IMG/VR virus record: IMGVR_UViG_3300045988_097954
Location: 1-64,000 of that record
Source: a virus
DNA length: 64,000 nucleotides
Direction: 5' to 3' (one strand)
Shown here: piece by piece, positions 37,863 through 46,645 of the stretch
Layout: the number at the start of each line of letters is the position of its first letter
How positions within the stretch are numbered: the first letter of the stretch is position 1
Notes under the pieces: generated by a model
What the model was told of the DNA's origin: nothing
The model's input: only the letters and a program-made list of their open reading frames with translations
The model's database searches: none
Position numbers and translations under genes: made by a program

Positions 37863-37891
37863 TTGACACTCCTATAGTATTGTGCTATAGT
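37863..37891 (+). promoter_or_regulatory. sigma70-like promoter
   Basis: TTGACA-17-(TGC)TATAGT. Confidence 0.6.
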
Positions 37892-38100: not shown

Positions 38101-38826
38101 ATGAACATACTGATTGCATGTGAAGAATCCCAAACAGTTTGCTTATCCTTTAGAAAACTTGGGTTTAACGCCTATAGTTGCGACCTAGTGGAATGCTCTG
38201 GTGGTTATCCACGTTGGCATATCCAAGGCGATGCACTAGAAGTCATCAGAAATAACGGTGGTACAACTCAAGATGGTAAACGTGTGATAGTCGATAAATG
38301 GGATTTAATGATTGCCCATCCACCGTGTACATATTTGACATCTAGTGGTGCAAAATGGTTTTATCATCCAGATGACAAAGGTTTACCAATTGAAGACCGA
38401 AGACCACATCCAAAGTTTCCCAATCGCAAGAAAGACCAAGATGCTGGTGCTGAATTTTTCATGGCATTATACAATTCCGACATTCCATATATTGCAGTAG
38501 AAAACCCTGTTGGTGTCATGTCAACACGTTTTCGCAAGCCAGACCAAATTGTTCAACCGTTTATGTTTGGCGACCAAGCACGCAAAACAACTTGTTTATG
38601 GCTCAAGGGTTTGCCACTATTAGAGCCAACTAATGTTGTAGACGAGGGCGAGACTTTGACGTTTAAAAGCGGCAAGCGTATGCAAAAGTGGATTTCTGAT
38701 GCATTAACAAATACCAAGACTGCCGAAGAACGCAGACGATTACGTTCTAAGACATTCGAAGGTATGGCACAAGCAATGGCATCTCAATGGGGTGCATTTG
38801 TATTATCGCAGGAGGAAAACAAATGA
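38101..38826 (+). CDS. short C5-cytosine DNA methyltransferase-like protein
   Basis: HPPCTYLT (PC motif IV-like), ENPVG (motif VI-like) and a C-terminal RSKTFEGMAQAMASQW. No FxGxG motif I; it has ILIACEESQ instead. Only 241 aa. Confidence 0.45.
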   Translation: MNILIACEESQTVCLSFRKLGFNAYSCDLVECSGGYPRWHIQGDALEVIRNNGGTTQDGKRVIVDKWDLMIAHPPCTYLTSSGAKWFYHPDDKGLPIEDRRPHPKFPNRKKDQDAGAEFFMALYNSDIPYIAVENPVGVMSTRFRKPDQIVQPFMFGDQARKTTCLWLKGLPLLEPTNVVDEGETLTFKSGKRMQKWISDALTNTKTAEERRRLRSKTFEGMAQAMASQWGAFVLSQEENK

Positions 38827-39581
38827 AAGATTTTGAGATTATCAAAGATTTGGTTTCTACAGAAGAATATTACCAATATTTAGACCATATGATTTTTCAT
38901 TATTCAACAATGGAAGTTTCATTAGAACAAGCATTAGAATTAAAATCATATGTAGATGAATTGGTTGATACATTAGAAGAAAACAAAGGTAATAACACAT
39001 CTGCTGAACTTGATAAATACTTAGAGCGGTCTTATCGTGAATTTTTCAAAGAACAAGAAGAGTCGATGGTTGATGACGTAGAAGAGCCTACACAGGATAC
39101 ATCTGATGTAGAATTTAAAGTTGGTGACCGTGTTGTAGTACGCCCTGATAACAGGATTGTTGACAAACAATATTGGGGAACAGTTATCTTGGTACACAAA
39201 GATTTACATGGTGATTACAACTATTTAGTAGAATTAGACAATAAAAAACTTGGATGGATAGCAACTGTTGGACTAGAGGGCATCGCCTGTGACAATGCAT
39301 GGTGGGCAGACCCAGAAACTATGGTTCATATGAAAGATTATCTAAAGAAAGATGTTTGGTATGATTGCCATAATTTTACACCAGAGCAGCTCAAAGAAGT
39401 GTTGCATATTGGAACAACAATTGACGTTGTTGTATTGGACGATAGTGAAATTACAAAAGATGATTTAGTTGGTGAATTTTCTTGTGTGTCTCGTGTAGAA
39501 GATATTATCACACAGGATGGACAAACCGTAATCGAGGTTAATCGTGGTAATTGCTATCGTAGATATTTCAAACTAGCATAG
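38823..39581 (+). CDS. hypothetical protein
   Basis: CAGGAGG SD before the ATG at 38823. Confidence 0.65.
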   Translation: MKDFEIIKDLVSTEEYYQYLDHMIFHYSTMEVSLEQALELKSYVDELVDTLEENKGNNTSAELDKYLERSYREFFKEQEESMVDDVEEPTQDTSDVEFKVGDRVVVRPDNRIVDKQYWGTVILVHKDLHGDYNYLVELDNKKLGWIATVGLEGIACDNAWWADPETMVHMKDYLKKDVWYDCHNFTPEQLKEVLHIGTTIDVVVLDDSEITKDDLVGEFSCVSRVEDIITQDGQTVIEVNRGNCYRRYFKLA

Positions 39582-39603: not shown

Positions 39604-40521
39604 ATGAAATACAGAAACGGTAATGCCGTTGTTACACTTGATTTAAGAGATGGAACACGTGTGATTGAATACCCAGATAACGAACGTTTAACTTTGGAGA
39701 CACCACTCAATATTGACGTTCGAGTATCCACACGTTGTCCATACGGCTACGATAGCACAACACAACATTCTACTTGTGGATTCTGCCATGAGTCTGCACT
39801 TGTAAATGGACATGAGTGTGATTATAATGCTTTGACTCAGGTTTTTACAGATGCCAGATTACCACGTGGTACGGAAATTGCCTTGGGTGTCAATGAAGTA
39901 ACGGACTCCTTAGTATATTTTGTCAAATATTTATATTTTTTGGGTCTAGTTGTCAACATTACAATGAACGAGCGTTATATTAACGAATATGGCGATACAG
40001 GGCTATTAAGATTAAAGCCGTATATCTTTGGTCTTGGGATTTCTTATCGCTCCTTACAGGGGTGTTTATCGCTACCAGATTGGATTGCAGAATATCCACA
40101 TACGGTTATCCATGTGATTAATGGCATTGATGATTTTACAGATGTCATGGAGCTTGGGGTGAAGTACCGTAAGTTATTAGTCTTGGGTGAAAAAGACTTT
40201 GGATTCAACCGTGGTAAAGTCGATTTGTCTACTAAAGAACATCAACAATGGAAAACCAATATTATGCAATTGACACAAATCTTTGATGTTGTGTCTTTCG
40301 ACAACTTAGGGTTGCAACAATTGGACATCCGTGGTAAAATATCCATACAGGAATACAATGAATTTTACCAAGGTGAACATTCTATGTATATCAATGCGGT
40401 AGAACAATATTTTGCACCATCTAGTCGGACACGCAATAATATTAAATACTTTAGCGAAACCGCAATTAAACCGTATTTCCAATATTGCGAACAACAGGGG
40501 GTATCTCATGAGACTTATTAG
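39604..40521 (+). CDS. hypothetical protein with CX12CX2C motif (possible radical-SAM-like Fe-S enzyme)
   Basis: STRCPYGYDSTTQHSTCGFCHES lies near the N-terminus of a 305-aa protein with an alternating beta/alpha-like pattern. The assignment is weak. Confidence 0.25.
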   Translation: MKYRNGNAVVTLDLRDGTRVIEYPDNERLTLETPLNIDVRVSTRCPYGYDSTTQHSTCGFCHESALVNGHECDYNALTQVFTDARLPRGTEIALGVNEVTDSLVYFVKYLYFLGLVVNITMNERYINEYGDTGLLRLKPYIFGLGISYRSLQGCLSLPDWIAEYPHTVIHVINGIDDFTDVMELGVKYRKLLVLGEKDFGFNRGKVDLSTKEHQQWKTNIMQLTQIFDVVSFDNLGLQQLDIRGKISIQEYNEFYQGEHSMYINAVEQYFAPSSRTRNNIKYFSETAIKPYFQYCEQQGVSHETY

Positions 40522-41002
40522 ACATAGTGTTTTCGAAACAAACAGCTCTTCTTGTCATTCAATGGCATATGTCGCAAGATTACAATTAAATGTACCACAG
40601 GAGACACAAACGATTACTCAGCAATTTGGTACTCTTGGTTTTACTCCAATGTTTAATGACCAATCTTGGGAAGTGCATTTTAAGAACTATATGTGGAAAG
40701 AACAAAAGTTATCATCACCACAAGACAAATTATGGTTTTTATTAATGGAAGTCTATAGTGAGTCTTTGCTTGATGAAGTGTTTGCTGATGAGTTCTATCT
40801 ACATGTAAAACAATGGCTACAAGACATCGGCATTTATCTGGAAGAAATTGGATATGATGAAAATGACTACATAGAAAATATACCAACCAACGGAATAGTA
40901 AAACAAGAGATGTTTAAAACACCACAAGATTTATATAAATACTTGTTTGATAATAATCTTATAATTGACATTCGTCAATATGAGGTCGAAGCTGAGTATT
41001 AA
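40508..41002 (+). CDS. FETNSSSxHS-family protein, paralog 1
   Basis: Starts MRLIRHSVFETNSSSCHSMAY. Shares the SPQDKLWFL, WLQDIGI and DLYKYLFDNN blocks with paralogs 2 and 3, but lacks the DH(Q/E)S block. Confidence 0.7.
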   Translation: MRLIRHSVFETNSSSCHSMAYVARLQLNVPQETQTITQQFGTLGFTPMFNDQSWEVHFKNYMWKEQKLSSPQDKLWFLLMEVYSESLLDEVFADEFYLHVKQWLQDIGIYLEEIGYDENDYIENIPTNGIVKQEMFKTPQDLYKYLFDNNLIIDIRQYEVEAEY

Positions 41003-41015
41003 TGGGAGGACTAAT

Positions 41016-41333
41016 ATGCAAACATATTTAACACAAGAGCAGCAAAGAGAGTTAAATACTTTGTTAAACGCAACTTATAGCGAAAAAGACGAGTTGTTTA
41101 GCGATTTTCTTTATAATTACCCATACTATCTAATGGAAGAAGATTCTGGGGTTGATTGGGTTGATGAGTATTATAGTGGTAAATGGATTGTTTATCAATG
41201 CATTGATGGTCGATATTTTAAGCTGACATATACAGAACACAACAGTATGCAAGACCGTGATAATTGGGAATTCTTTGAGGTTAGACCGTTCCCAAAAACA
41301 GTCTTTGTTTACGAACCAGTGGAGGAAAACTAA
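41016..41333 (+). CDS. small beta-rich module protein (homologous to the N-terminus of paralog 2)
   Basis: VYQCIDGRYFKLTYTE..FFEVRPFPKTVFVY aligns with VYMCSNGKYYMLECYE..FIEVEHKMKIVDY of the next gene. Confidence 0.65.
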   Translation: MQTYLTQEQQRELNTLLNATYSEKDELFSDFLYNYPYYLMEEDSGVDWVDEYYSGKWIVYQCIDGRYFKLTYTEHNSMQDRDNWEFFEVRPFPKTVFVYEPVEEN

Positions 41334-42415
41334 TGGATTCTCAAGACCAACATTCTTTAGAGTGTCTATTGGAATCATCCTTTGGTATGCGTTGTGATGT
41401 AGACATGATGCCGTCTTGCTTAGATTTAGTAAAAAGACGAGTTATTTTTGTTACTGATACTTATACTAAGGTTATGGAAGTCTATATGTGTTCTAATGGC
41501 AAATACTATATGTTAGAATGTTATGAGCCACACATAGGCACTCACAGAATGTTATATCGATTTATTGAAGTTGAACACAAGATGAAAATTGTTGATTATT
41601 TTTGTGCCACTACAGGAGGAAAACAAACGAAATTAATACGCAATGGTGTATTTGAGACCAACTCTAGCTCTGCACATTCGTTGGCATACACAAATAAAGT
41701 CTTGCGTGATTATGAGTATAAAATCAATCCATCCGAATGTTTGAAAGATAGCCGTTTTCGTCTAACAGAAATGCCAGAAGAATATCGCTCGTATGCATAT
41801 ATGCCGTTATACTTTGATGATTACGGCTGGAGTGGCAAATGCTTAACATCTCCTGCCCAAAAACTGAGTTATTTGATGTCGTCCGTTTACCAGTATAAAA
41901 CTTGGGGAGAAATGTATAGTGACCCATTCTTTAAGCAAATTGTACAATGGTTGACTGAACTAGGTATTAATCTTGAATATGAATACCCAGGTGATGACGA
42001 AAGAATTGACGGTTATGTAGACCACCAGTCTTATGACGTTGTGTGTAAACAGATGTTTAATTCTAAAGAAGATTTACTTACGTATTTATTCAATGATGCA
42101 ATTACTGTGTATATCGAAAATGATAACGATGATTTTCAAGAATGGGTTGAAAACCCGAGTGATACAATCGGTTATCAAGAAGCAATGTATTATGTTTGTT
42201 CTCGTGGTAAATGTGCTAAACGTAAATCTTGGGATGATAATACATATATTTATTCTGACTTGGTATATTCTCATGATAACAACTATTTGGGGCAAGCCAT
42301 TATAAAAGTTTGTGATAAATCTAAATGGTTATATGCTGCAAGTACGTCTGATGTAAATGCAAATGACTGGGTTATTCTTTGGGAGGTAAACAAATATGCG
42401 ATTAGTAAGAAATAA
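41333..42415 (+). CDS. FETNSSSxHS-family protein, paralog 2, with N-terminal beta module and C-terminal DUF2829-like domain
   Basis: Contains KLIRNGVFETNSSSAHSLAY, GYVDHQS and YLFNDAITVYIENDND. The C-terminus KRKSWDDNTYIY...NANDWVIL is DUF2829-like. Confidence 0.7.
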   Translation: MDSQDQHSLECLLESSFGMRCDVDMMPSCLDLVKRRVIFVTDTYTKVMEVYMCSNGKYYMLECYEPHIGTHRMLYRFIEVEHKMKIVDYFCATTGGKQTKLIRNGVFETNSSSAHSLAYTNKVLRDYEYKINPSECLKDSRFRLTEMPEEYRSYAYMPLYFDDYGWSGKCLTSPAQKLSYLMSSVYQYKTWGEMYSDPFFKQIVQWLTELGINLEYEYPGDDERIDGYVDHQSYDVVCKQMFNSKEDLLTYLFNDAITVYIENDNDDFQEWVENPSDTIGYQEAMYYVCSRGKCAKRKSWDDNTYIYSDLVYSHDNNYLGQAIIKVCDKSKWLYAASTSDVNANDWVILWEVNKYAISKK

Positions 42416-42932
42416 TCTGTTTGAAACCAATAGTTCCTCGGCTCATTCTTTGGCTTTTGGCACATCTAAAATCATTCGTGGTGCTGGATGGGGCATACCA
42501 GAAGATGAAACCGACTTCAGTAATCCATTGTATCACCTGTATGAAATCCCAAGTTGTTATCAAGGATATACACTGCATGAATGGCTTGGGGAATATGGCT
42601 GGGGTTATGACGTACTGTCTACACCACAAGAAAAATTCTCTTATTTAATTACAGGTATTTGGCAACGGAATGGTGGCTTCTCGTTAGAGAAGAGCATGTT
42701 TTATACCGAAATTAAACATTGGTTGACAGAGTTGGGTATTCCAGTGATTGAATCATCCGCAGATGAAGAAGGTTATATCGACCACGAAAGTACGCACTTA
42801 GTAAATCCATCGTTGTTTAAAACCAAAGAAGACTTGATTACATACTTGTTCAATGATAATATTGTGATTTACATTGAGAACGACAACGATGAATATCAAG
42901 AGTGGTACACAGGTGAAAGGTCAGAAGATTAA
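42396..42932 (+). CDS. FETNSSSxHS-family protein, paralog 3
   Basis: Contains MRLVRNNLFETNSSSAHSLAF, GYIDHES and YLFNDNIVIYIENDND. Confidence 0.7.
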   Translation: MRLVRNNLFETNSSSAHSLAFGTSKIIRGAGWGIPEDETDFSNPLYHLYEIPSCYQGYTLHEWLGEYGWGYDVLSTPQEKFSYLITGIWQRNGGFSLEKSMFYTEIKHWLTELGIPVIESSADEEGYIDHESTHLVNPSLFKTKEDLITYLFNDNIVIYIENDNDEYQEWYTGERSED

Positions 42933-43372
42933 TGAGAGATGTATATATTGTCTATTCTTGCAGTGGCGAATGGGAAGACTATATAGAATCTATTGTGTAT
43001 CTAGTGTATCACAAACATTATGCAGAGATACTATTGAAACAGCTACAAGAAGAAGACAAGCGGTTAGAACAAGAATATAGACAGGTTTACAAACAATTGG
43101 AATCATTCGAGGACGATGACTTAGGAGACCTTTGGTTAGATAGGGTAGAAGATATATATTTTGAAGACTTTTTAAATGAGCCTGAGCAGTACCCAAATGT
43201 CTTATCTCAGTTTACAATCCCTGAGCAAAAACGTTTGCTTGAATATGCACAGTTATATAAACGATGGGAACAACTCGGTGGATATATGTATGATGGCACA
43301 AATTATTTTATTCGTCAGTATGCCATGAGCGATGACGGTCGTATGACATATATCAACAGTAATTGGGGGTAA
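42932..43372 (+). CDS. hypothetical protein
   Basis: 146-aa ORF with a TAATG overlap. Confidence 0.6.
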   Translation: MRDVYIVYSCSGEWEDYIESIVYLVYHKHYAEILLKQLQEEDKRLEQEYRQVYKQLESFEDDDLGDLWLDRVEDIYFEDFLNEPEQYPNVLSQFTIPEQKRLLEYAQLYKRWEQLGGYMYDGTNYFIRQYAMSDDGRMTYINSNWG

Positions 43373-43375
43373 CGT

Positions 43376-43597
43376 ATGACATATGCAGAAGTAACAAAAG
43401 ATATTTACGCAGGTCTCATTGTAAAGCGAAAATCTTGGAATAATATTCGTGTTCAATACATGGATTTATTCGATGGGTTTGATAGTTTTGTAGATTTTGC
43501 CATGGTATTATATGATGAAATAACAAGAGAATACATTGGTATTTATACACCAGAACCACGAGATGAATTTGCCAACGATTGGGTGATTGTTAAATGA
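43376..43597 (+). CDS. DUF2829-like (Tad2-like) small protein
   Basis: The pattern AGLIVKRKSW...TPEPRDEFANDWVIVK matches the DUF2829 signature (G..v.R..W ... DW.iv). Confidence 0.5.
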   Translation: MTYAEVTKDIYAGLIVKRKSWNNIRVQYMDLFDGFDSFVDFAMVLYDEITREYIGIYTPEPRDEFANDWVIVK

Positions 43598-45911: not shown

Positions 45912-46068
45912 TATGGTGCTTATATACTGCCATTAAGGGCTGGACGCACGATGGGTGTCTAGCTGTATATACCATTCAACAGCTATACAGTAGTTTACAA
46001 GGAAAAACAGCATCCAGTATGGGTGAAGACGGGAGGTTCGATGCCTGCCATGTATAGTGGTGTTGTAT

Positions 46069-46142
46069 TCTTGGGTAGTTCAATGGTAGAGCATCTGGCT
46101 GTTAACCAGAGAGTTGCAAGTTCGAGTCTTGCCCAAGAGCCA
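46069..46142 (+). tRNA. tRNA-Asn (GTT)
   Basis: Hand-folded cloverleaf: TCTTGGG/CCCAAGA acceptor, loop CTGTTAA, T arm GCAAG-TTCGAGT-CTTGC, CCA encoded. Confidence 0.85.
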
Positions 46143-46143
46143 T

Positions 46144-46229
46144 GTCGTTGTGGTCAAGATGGATAAAGACAACAGACTGTAAATCTGTCGCTTATAGCTT
46201 CGTAGGTTTGAATCATCCCAACGGCACCA
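46144..46229 (+). tRNA. tRNA-Tyr (GTA), class II, weak T stem
   Basis: Acceptor GTCGTTG/CAACGGC, anticodon arm ACAGA-CTGTAAA-TCTGT, long variable arm, CCA encoded. The T stem has only 3 of 5 pairs. Confidence 0.6.
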
Positions 46230-46230
46230 T

Positions 46231-46304
46231 GTGGGCATGGTGTAATGTAAACACGTCGGTCTCCAAAACCGAAGATAGGGGTTAGATTCCTCTTGCCTAT
46301 GCCA
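46231..46304 (+). tRNA. tRNA-Trp (CCA)
   Basis: Acceptor GTGGGCA/TGCCTAT (two G.U pairs), D arm GTGT/ACAC, anticodon arm TCGGT-CTCCAAA-ACCGA, T arm AGGGG-TTAGATT-CCTCT, CCA encoded. Confidence 0.8.
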
Positions 46305-46305
46305 T

Positions 46306-46382
46306 ATCCCCATGATGAAACTGGCAAACATACTGGACTTAGAATCCAGGTTTTGTAGGTTCGAGTCCTACTGGGGATACCA
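46306..46382 (+). tRNA. tRNA with anticodon TAG (Leu by anticodon) but a short 5-nt variable loop
   Basis: Acceptor ATCCCCA/TGGGGAT, anticodon arm CTGGA-CTTAGAA-TCCAG, T arm GTAGG-TTCGAGT-CCTAC, A73, CCA encoded. Confidence 0.7.
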
Positions 46383-46385
46383 CAT

Positions 46386-46459
46386 AGAGATATGGTGTAA
46401 TGGTAACACAGCAGATTTTGACTCTGCAATCCTAGGTTCAACTCCTAGTATCTCTTCCA
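46386..46459 (+). tRNA. tRNA-Gln (TTG)
   Basis: Acceptor AGAGATA/TATCTCT, anticodon arm GCAGA-TTTTGAC-TCTGC, T arm CTAGG-TTCAACT-CCTAG, CCA encoded. Confidence 0.85.
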
Positions 46460-46555
46460 TTAAATCCACTGTGGGTCGCAACCACGGTGGTCGGTATTAG
46501 GGGTTTGCCGATAAGGGGAGAACGGATGCATGCTGTTTTTCTAACCCACCTACAT

Positions 46556-46645
46556 GGATAGTTGGCAGAGTATGGTTTATTGCGACAGTCTTGAAAACTG
46601 TTGAGCGGAAACGCTCCGTGGGTTCAAATCCTACACTATCCTCCA
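46556..46645 (+). tRNA. tRNA-Ser (TGA), class II
   Basis: Acceptor GGATAGT/ACTATCC, anticodon arm ACAGT-CTTGAAA-ACTGT, long variable arm, T arm GTGGG-TTCAAAT-CCTAC, CCA encoded. Confidence 0.85.

Follow-up and report, generated by a model that had tools for sequence, protein, structure and literature searches.

The 64,000 bp window analysed here (positions 1 to 64,000 of IMG/VR virus record IMGVR_UViG_3300045988_097954) is part of a Caudoviricetes genome and contains a cassette of tightly packed or overlapping open reading frames (ORFs), flanked by primase and DnaB helicase genes, in which three genes code for paralogous proteins with a common FETNSSSxHS block. The Cys-motif gene (39604-40521), which a first-pass annotation of this DNA described as heading the cluster, does lead it but is more than its head: across loci it is a near-obligate partner of FETNSSS-tagged genes. 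Its product is predicted to be a divergent radical S-adenosylmethionine (SAM) protein, and the family of its partners, as judged from sequence, is defined by an invariant N-terminal tag and not by a fold. We tentatively favour a maturase–substrate relation between the two, in which the radical-SAM enzyme recognises the tag and matures the proteins that carry it, a reading that is possible, though somewhat less likely than not.

The tagged genes and their radical-SAM partner

In all of the distant family members whose surroundings were inspected individually, a radical-SAM gene is the neighbour. Loci containing tagged genes were retrieved by motif (79 from IMG/VR and 61 from GTDB genomes) and searched with hidden Markov models (HMMs) of both families, with linkage counts restricted to loci having at least 3 kb of flank on both sides. 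A radical-SAM gene is present in 57 of 62 such IMG/VR loci, on the same strand in 57/57, at a median gap of 0 nt and within 100 nt in 51/57; the corresponding figures for GTDB genomes are 31 of 34 loci, 31/31 on the same strand, a median gap of 16 nt, and 25/31 within 100 nt. These linked loci cover 44 radical-SAM clusters at 60% identity, and each single ~300-aa radical-SAM gene is accompanied by 1 to 9 tagged genes. Because the radical-SAM gene is found in about 91% of tagged loci overall, and the tag with at least one long-type body (see below) in nearly all of them, the simplest account would be that the enzyme reads the tag.

The pairing can be seen in named phages. Microcystis phage Ma-LMM01 encodes a tagged protein (gp130), a ProQ-C-like protein (gp129) and a 'Fe-S oxidoreductase' (gp128), and four tagged ORFs come after the radical-SAM gene in Prevotella megaphage Lak-B1. 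We note that Ma-LMM01 gp129 (L008:3535-3873, where L numbers denote loci) is similar to the ProQ C-terminal domain (PF24203, E = 6.7e-15) and is not a short-type tagged protein. The largest array has nine tag-starting ORFs at the same offset in one 12-kb stretch, and is found in L138 and L141 (contigs of Prevotella and Fibrobacter metagenome-assembled genomes, MAGs). Among 185,579 species genomes there are only 61 loci, nearly all in gut or rumen MAGs, and the module therefore appears to be essentially phage-borne and to occur mainly in anaerobic habitats.

No third conserved partner family recurs near the tagged loci, the neighbours being assorted replication and nucleotide genes that include those for NrdD, dUTPase, Thg1, DnaB and primase. 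A consistent metabolic context for the module was also sought and rejected, as an NAD-salvage setting is seen at a single locus only (L001:4280-10288), where the module lies within a set encoding a nicotinamidase/isochorismatase, NAPRTase, a NadD-like protein and NadE upstream, with AAA_28 downstream. NADAR and PARP domains each occur once among the neighbours of other loci.

The 305-aa product of the leading gene reads RC-PYGYDSTTQHST-C-GF-C, a CX12CX2C motif (C45, C58, C61). Homologues that align with it at E = 1e-35 have the canonical CX3CX2C in the corresponding position; in the window protein and its close relatives, 9 residues are inserted between the first two Cys residues. Expanded cluster spacings are known, for example CX14CX2C in Burkholderia QueE. 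The protein matches phrog_16999 ('Fe-S oxidoreductase', E = 1.3e-19), and although it has no Pfam match itself, its orthologues score 32.9 (L006), 31.5 (L008) and 27.3 bits (L001) against PF04055 (gathering score 29.5), and about 40% of the family members listed in a precomputed table carry this domain. A profile of 44 family members, in all of which the three cluster Cys residues are invariant, matches the cluster region of solved radical-SAM enzymes (GDGT-MAS, SuiB, SkfB, QueE and others) with E = 1.4e-4 to 1e-2. The earlier suggestion of a radical-SAM-like Fe-S site is thus well founded. The family comprises about 2,100 clusters at 90% identity, all about 295-305 aa long and none functionally named, and has no Pfam or NCBIfam model of its own. 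It is marked by family-specific blocks at both ends, Y-x-N-G-N...D-G-T at the N-terminus and SFDNL...Q-L...Y-x-G-D-D-G at the C-terminus. In the glycine-rich SAM-binding region many members have E-x-A-[IL]-G-G-G-N, with EIALGVNE in the window protein and NLN for GGGN in L003 and L005; E91, A93 and N97 are the only invariants of this GGE region. SPASM, twitch and RRE domains are not detected in the family, nor is any invariant Cys beyond the three cluster ligands, which argues that a SPASM or twitch domain is lacking.

Assignment of the enzyme to the viperin, QueE or MoaA families was considered and rejected. The family has in common with these enzymes a size of about 300 aa and a single cluster (CX3CX2C), and profile searches do pick them up weakly. 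The alignments, however, extend over no more than the first ~100 core positions, with scores that are about 30 bits or lie far below the curated cut-offs, and the terminal blocks are specific to the family described here. The pVip models (about 260 positions) do not match the window protein, and in orthologues the match is confined to positions 2-103, with a score of about 30 bits. Other matches in NCBIfam and PADLOC, such as MoaA, NrdG, viperin and HxsC, are likewise to the generic core and far below cut-offs, as are those to the SPASM families of NCBIfam, which are limited to the N-terminal core.

Some orthologues are unusually long. The 691-aa product of L095:3629-5704 has an intein-like insertion of ~390 aa in the glycine-rich region (...ELA|C ... 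HN|CGGGN...), and on either side of the insertion the protein matches the family profile, at positions 1-86 and 86-295 respectively. Orthologues at L069:9612-11153 and L102:8993-10528 have a Cys-rich, HNH/AP2-like N-terminal extension of ~210 aa (IENCRW), which could be a fused homing-endonuclease-type domain or an artefact of ORF calling. A 'Rosetta-stone' fusion of a tagged protein to a radical-SAM domain was looked for among such long ORFs and rejected, as these are accounted for by the intein (L095), the HNH/AP2-like additions (L069, L102) or ORF-calling extensions, and have no match to the FETNSSS profile.

The tag itself is ~18 residues long, with the consensus M-x-x-[IV]-R-x-x-[VT]-F-E-T-N-S-S-S-x-H-[SA]. 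In 273 unique N-termini the residues R(-5), F(-1), E, T, N, S, S, S and H(+7) are each 99-100% conserved; R(-5) (100%), F(-1) (99%) and H(+7) (99%) formed no part of the search pattern. The motif Glu lies 9-10 residues from Met1 in 252 of the 273. The bodies behind the tag are diverse, and after removal of the tag fall into about 34 BLAST clusters. Long-type bodies (218 proteins in 138 loci) are the most numerous, followed by short-type bodies ending ...VAFGKYGYDG (70 proteins in 67 loci) and about 30 minor groups, some of which still show a helix resembling KLxYL and could be long types that have diverged strongly. Tagged proteins of ~100-135 aa encoded between the long type and the enzyme have only their first ~26 residues in common with the long type, and the hhalign alignment of short and long types is confined to residues 1-26 (probability 99.1%, E = 9e-19). 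The tagged proteins are acidic; their median isoelectric point (pI) is 4.6, and 88% are below pI 5 as compared with 24% of neighbouring ORFs.

At the variable positions of the tag, long and short paralogues agree at 6.75/14 within a locus and at 5.14/14 between loci (permutation p about 0.003, with only 8 independent loci). The excess suggests either a shared, locus-specific reader of the tag or homogenisation of tags by recombination. The three copies in the window differ in their motif codons, including Ser switches between the AGY and TCN codon families, so conservation has been selected at the protein level and is not that of a DNA repeat; these differences also rule out that motif identity stems from a repeat at the DNA level or from gene conversion inside the window. 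A glycyl-radical site in the tag was rejected, as the Gly two residues before the motif Phe is only 50% conserved and there is no RVxG motif. The invariant E-T-N-S-S does fit the bacterial N-glycosylation sequon, D/E-X-N-X-S/T (40535-40549, 41654-41668 and 42423-42437 in the window); this may be coincidence, and no glycosyltransferase is seen in the module.

The FETNSSS family is large, with 2,147 representative clusters at 50% identity in an exhaustive HMMER search and at least 2,807 clusters at 90% identity in a profile search. It had been described as uncharacterised, and we agree: no Pfam, NCBIfam or PADLOC model matches, the motif strings occur in no paper of the literature searched, and the sole profile match is to PHROG 28997 ('unknown function'), which was founded on Ma-LMM01 gp130 (E = 5e-115 for gp130, 2.6e-20 for the Lak-B1 long type and 3.9e-5 for the third paralogue of the window). 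AlphaFold2 (AF2) models of the long type from 33 and 71 sequences have an alpha/beta core at residues ~40-160 with predicted local distance difference test (pLDDT) values of 80-97; in both runs residues 1-33, the most conserved part of the protein, have pLDDT values of 23-42 and lie outside the fold, and the deeper alignment (71 sequences) leaves the tag disordered. Foldseek searches with the two models find no solved structure in the PDB at E < 1, and only two uncharacterised phage proteins in BFVD at E < 0.001; a weaker BFVD hit (E = 0.011) is a 461-aa 'Radical_SAM domain containing protein'.

The cassette in this phage

The three tandem paralogues (P1, P2 and P3) reported in the first-pass annotation are evident from the ORF coordinates, from BLASTP (P1 and P3 32% identity, E = 9e-25; P2 and P3 43% identity, E = 5e-45) and from alignments, in which the blocks listed there are also recovered: R..VFETNSSSxHS, (S/T)P(Q/A)xK(L/F), WL..(I/L)GI, GY(I/V)DH(Q/E)S and YLF(N/D)...I(ENDND). 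P1 was thought to be a copy that had lost the DH(Q/E)S block. The block is indeed absent, as is a second one (DYIENIPT replaces GYIDHEST, and IDIRQYEVE replaces IYIENDNDE), but the P1 orthologues P0122 and P0124 of other phages likewise lack the DHxS and ENDND blocks, which makes P1 a stable subtype rather than a decaying copy. A protein with 100% identity to P3 occurs in contigs labelled 'MAG TPA Caudoviricetes'.

Features of the tagged cassette, with window coordinates.
Feature	Coordinates	Strand	Remarks
ORFs of the tagged cassette	39604-40521, 40508-41002, 41016-41333, 41333-42415, 42396-42932, 42932-43372, 43376-43597	+	
Radical-SAM gene (putative), universal module partner	39604..40521	+	305 aa; phrog_16999 match; 14-nt overlap with start of P1
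Paralogue 1 (P1), 164 aa	40508..41002	+	tag at 40508-40561; long-type body without DHxS and NDN blocks
Free 105-aa small module, untagged	41016..41333	+	divergent paralogue of the 98-aa gene upstream of P2 in relatives
P2 N-terminal extension	41333..41629	+	orthologue of the separate 98-aa gene of relatives, fused in frame
Paralogue 2 (P2) proper	41627..42415	+	tag TKLIRNGVFETNSSSAHS at 41627-41680; DHxS and ENDND blocks; C-terminal Tad2-like domain
Paralogue 3 (P3), 178 aa, canonical long-type tagged protein	42396..42932	+	tag at 42396-42449; GEYGW, EKFSYL, GYIDHES and IENDND blocks
146-aa ORF, function unassigned	42932..43372	+	may or may not be a module member; position kept in relatives
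Free Tad2-like (DUF2829) protein, 73 aa	43376..43597	+	PF11195, 27.3 bits

P2 has an unusual structure. In relatives a separate 98-aa gene lies directly upstream of P2, and in this phage its stop codon has been lost, giving in-frame read-through into P2. The ancestral ATG of P2 is an ACG at 41627-41629, with a perfect AGGAGG 7 nt upstream, and the ACG is also present in an independent assembly. From the sequence, the expected P2 product is a 360-aa fusion whose tag is internal or else the result of initiation at the non-canonical ACG. The free 105-aa ORF is homologous to the P2 N-terminal extension, as had been proposed (25% identity, E = 7e-4 by BLASTP), and is about 24% identical to the 98-aa gene of relatives; it has no match in Pfam, PHROG or NCBIfam, and the close relatives L010, L150 and L151 are without it. 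Cassette content differs between near-identical phages: L150, whose P3 is 97% identical, has no P1; L151 (P3 93% identical) has no 105-aa genes and no free Tad2; and L010 has no 105-aa genes. The duplication and shuffling noted earlier for this locus fit these differences, which point to quick turnover of the kind seen in accessory and arms-race loci.

Both of the DUF2829 domains assigned earlier, and labelled there as putative sponge domains, score above the Pfam gathering cut-off of 25 for PF11195, which is Tad2-like: P2 residues 281-348 (42173-42376) with 29.0 bits, and the 73-aa ORF with the score given in the table. The 73-aa protein is related to the P2 C-terminus (BLASTP E = 9e-6) and weakly resembles HgmTad2/AcrIIA7 (chain 8kbi) in the RKxWN and ANDWVIV segments. 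We compared both domains at the HgmTad2 residues that contact glycocyclic ADP-ribose (gcADPR), namely W21, N22, G23, S90, T92 and D93. The 73-aa protein has KSWNN and PRDEFANDWVIV, with W, N and D kept and S90 and T92 lost, and the P2 domain has KSWDD and STSDVNANDWVIL, with W, S, S in place of T, and D kept and N22 changed to D. The RK(S/G)W(N/D) loop and (S/T)xD...ANDWV segment of the Tad2 (DUF2829, PF11195) sponges of gcADPR and cyclic dinucleotides are thus partly kept in these two copies. A further difference is that one of them follows a long-type body that carries the tag. There are numerous 262-aa relatives in which tag and Tad2 are combined in this way, and more than 40 clusters among the matches listed have a C-terminal Tad2-like fusion; in the Tad2 literature no fusion of a tagged body to Tad2 is mentioned at the passages on fusion or DUF2829 that were checked.

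Maturation of tagged proteins and its alternatives

In the maturase–substrate reading the radical-SAM enzyme would bind the flexible N-terminal tag of each tagged protein, and the SAM-derived 5'-deoxyadenosyl radical would modify a residue within ETNSSSxH. The matured acidic proteins would then act as accessory factors in the infected cell, and in this phage lineage two Tad2-like sponge domains may have been recruited into the same cassette. We favour this reading because one enzyme accompanies many tagged genes, because the tail is flexible, invariant and rich in Ser and His, and because the habitat fits radical-SAM chemistry; physical recognition of the tag, a modification and its chemistry, and an anti-defence role are what we infer from these observations. 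A counter-defence role of the cassette is plausible given the Tad2 fusions, the acidity, the changes in copy number and the occasional NAD and ADP-ribose neighbours. The fuller proposal, that phages of anaerobes and cyanobacteria carry a protein-maturation system whose enzyme modifies the ETNSSSxH tag on diversifying acidic effectors, some of them Tad2-fused, that neutralise host immune signalling or defences, is possible but on the doubtful side.

Several points weigh against maturation. Most known peptide and protein maturases need auxiliary clusters, whereas only the three cluster Cys are invariant here and there is no RRE, SPASM or twitch domain. The tag of P2 is internal (residues 99-116) unless the ACG serves as a start codon, which argues against a strict need for a free N-terminus. 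The DHxS and NDN(H) blocks of the long type follow beta-strands in the manner of alpha/beta active-site loops, so that the tag strand could be catalytic and simply left undocked in the AF2 models. The within-locus agreement of tags, coming from 8 independent loci, could reflect gene conversion.

The main rival is an adaptor or co-subunit model, in which the tag docks proteins on the enzyme, the chemical substrate is something else (a nucleotide, DNA base or metabolite), and the tagged proteins serve as subunits for specificity, delivery or follow-on catalysis, the last at a site formed in the long type by the DHxS and NDN blocks. It draws on the same linkage and tag data, and it would suit a small, single-cluster enzyme resembling the small-molecule enzymes viperin and QueE, with weak matches to the core only, as well as the setting among replication and nucleotide-metabolism genes (NrdD, dUTPase, Thg1, DnaB, primase) and the conserved polar blocks of the long-type body. 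However, many tagged proteins, P1 and the entire short type among them, do not have those polar blocks, up to nine 'subunits' for one enzyme would be unusual, and no ligand-binding or enzyme fold is detectable in the body; on balance we consider the model unlikely, if a serious competitor. The first-pass annotation had favoured a different role, in which the motif forms the active-site loop of a hydrolase or transferase dependent on metal or phosphate, and in its developed form the tagged proteins would be free-standing enzymes acting on nucleotide immune signals or NAD-derived molecules, with the Ser/His loop and DH catalytic and the radical-SAM protein separate. The conserved E, N, S, H, D-H and N-D-N-H residues do follow predicted beta-strands, and the C-terminal Tad2-like fusions, the NAD-salvage cluster around the L001 module and the sporadic NADAR and PARP neighbours would all fit, but the similarity searches and the distribution of the motif speak against it. 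No hydrolase or transferase is similar in sequence or fold; a PDB profile search with the family has as its best hit ENPP5, which is not significant (E = 0.69, domain E of 17), and an alkaline-phosphatase/NPP-like minimal active site (beta1-acid, Ser nucleophile, DH) was rejected, with this hit alone in its favour and nothing from Foldseek. AF2 keeps the motif out of the fold, and the DHxS and NDN blocks are missing from many tagged proteins, among them proteins of ~100 aa with none of the other blocks, whereas the N-terminal block is invariant. The hydrolase model could hold for the long type only, leans on an NAD context seen at a single locus, and leaves the ~91% physical linkage to the radical-SAM gene unexplained, and we regard it as decidedly improbable. 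Lower still we would place a sorting signal, in which the tag directs capsid packaging (like the capsid-targeting sequence of T4 internal proteins) or export and has nothing to do with radical-SAM chemistry. A fixed N-terminal position, diverse acidic cargo bodies and several paralogues per genome would fit such a signal, but the tagged genes are in the replication/early region, with neither head genes nor a prohead protease for company, the tag is polar and without signal-peptide character, and an obligate adjacent radical-SAM gene would be left unexplained, making this a very improbable explanation.

Neither the radical-SAM superfamily nor the idea of a radical-SAM enzyme encoded together with protein partners is new. 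The tag, the partner fold and this pairing are absent from Pfam, NCBIfam, PADLOC, the functional PHROG annotations, the PDB and the literature searched, including that on phage radical-SAM enzymes. The closest parallels to the favoured maturase–substrate relation are the anaerobic sulfatase-maturating enzymes anSME/AtsB (which convert Ser or Cys to formylglycine) and the glycyl-radical activases PFL-AE (pyruvate formate-lyase activating enzyme) and NrdG, all of which target a short, conserved stretch in a folded protein and where one dedicated radical-SAM enzyme is likewise co-encoded with its protein partner or partners. As in anSME and the glycyl-radical activases, the partner has an invariant short motif (Ser-rich here) in a flexible segment and the module comes mostly from anaerobic settings, namely gut and rumen metagenomes. 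In contrast to anSME there is no SPASM/twitch auxiliary-cluster domain and no CxPxR or SxPxR motif, the RVxG motif of glycyl-radical systems is lacking, and the tag is at the extreme N-terminus and is common to many divergent bodies. The partner fold has no match among sulfatases or glycyl-radical enzymes, and matches of the enzyme family are limited to the generic cluster region. Systems for peptides that are made on ribosomes and modified after translation (RiPPs), such as SCIFF, sactipeptides and the His-Xaa-Ser system HxsABC, are similar in that a radical-SAM gene adjoins several paralogues with a conserved N-terminus, a variable remainder and variable copy number. The partners here, however, are not short peptides but folded acidic proteins of 90-260 aa, the conserved stretch spans only about 18-26 residues and is itself rich in modifiable ones, there is no detectable RRE, and matches of the enzyme family to the HxsB and HxsC models are 12-17 bits as against cut-offs of 268-370.

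Modification of the tag by the enzyme, if real, would amount to a new post-translational chemistry acting on a new class of substrate, that of whole proteins with an 18-residue N-terminal tag, carried by thousands of phage lineages that include the Lak megaphages and the cultured cyanophage Ma-LMM01. Two large families of 'hypothetical' proteins (about 2,800 and 2,100 clusters at 90% identity) would be explained together, FETNSSSxH would provide a sequence handle for fast-evolving phage accessory proteins, and the Tad2 fusions would tie radical chemistry to phage–host conflict.

Features around the cassette

The window has no nucleotide match to catalogued phages by megablast, and tblastn of P3 against the same phages finds none at 1e-5, whereas the radical-SAM protein as query did match. 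The 146-aa ORF between P3 and the free Tad2-like gene has sub-threshold matches only, to a RiboL-PSP HEPN domain (E = 0.088), DUF6557 (0.029) and PADLOC CARF_m9 (0.0019). Directly 5' of the radical-SAM gene (38101-39581) are a DNA methyltransferase gene (phrog_757, E = 1e-59) and a 264-aa ORF that has shrunk to 68 aa in the relative L010. At 37863-37891 there is a strong sigma-70-like site that could stand at the head of the block as a whole, although sites of this kind show no enrichment relative to shuffled sequence. To the 3' side of the DnaB gene, in a region without long ORFs, there are six tRNA genes (Asn-GTT, Tyr-GTA, Trp-CCA, Leu-TAG, Gln-TTG and Ser-TGA) at 46068-46645.

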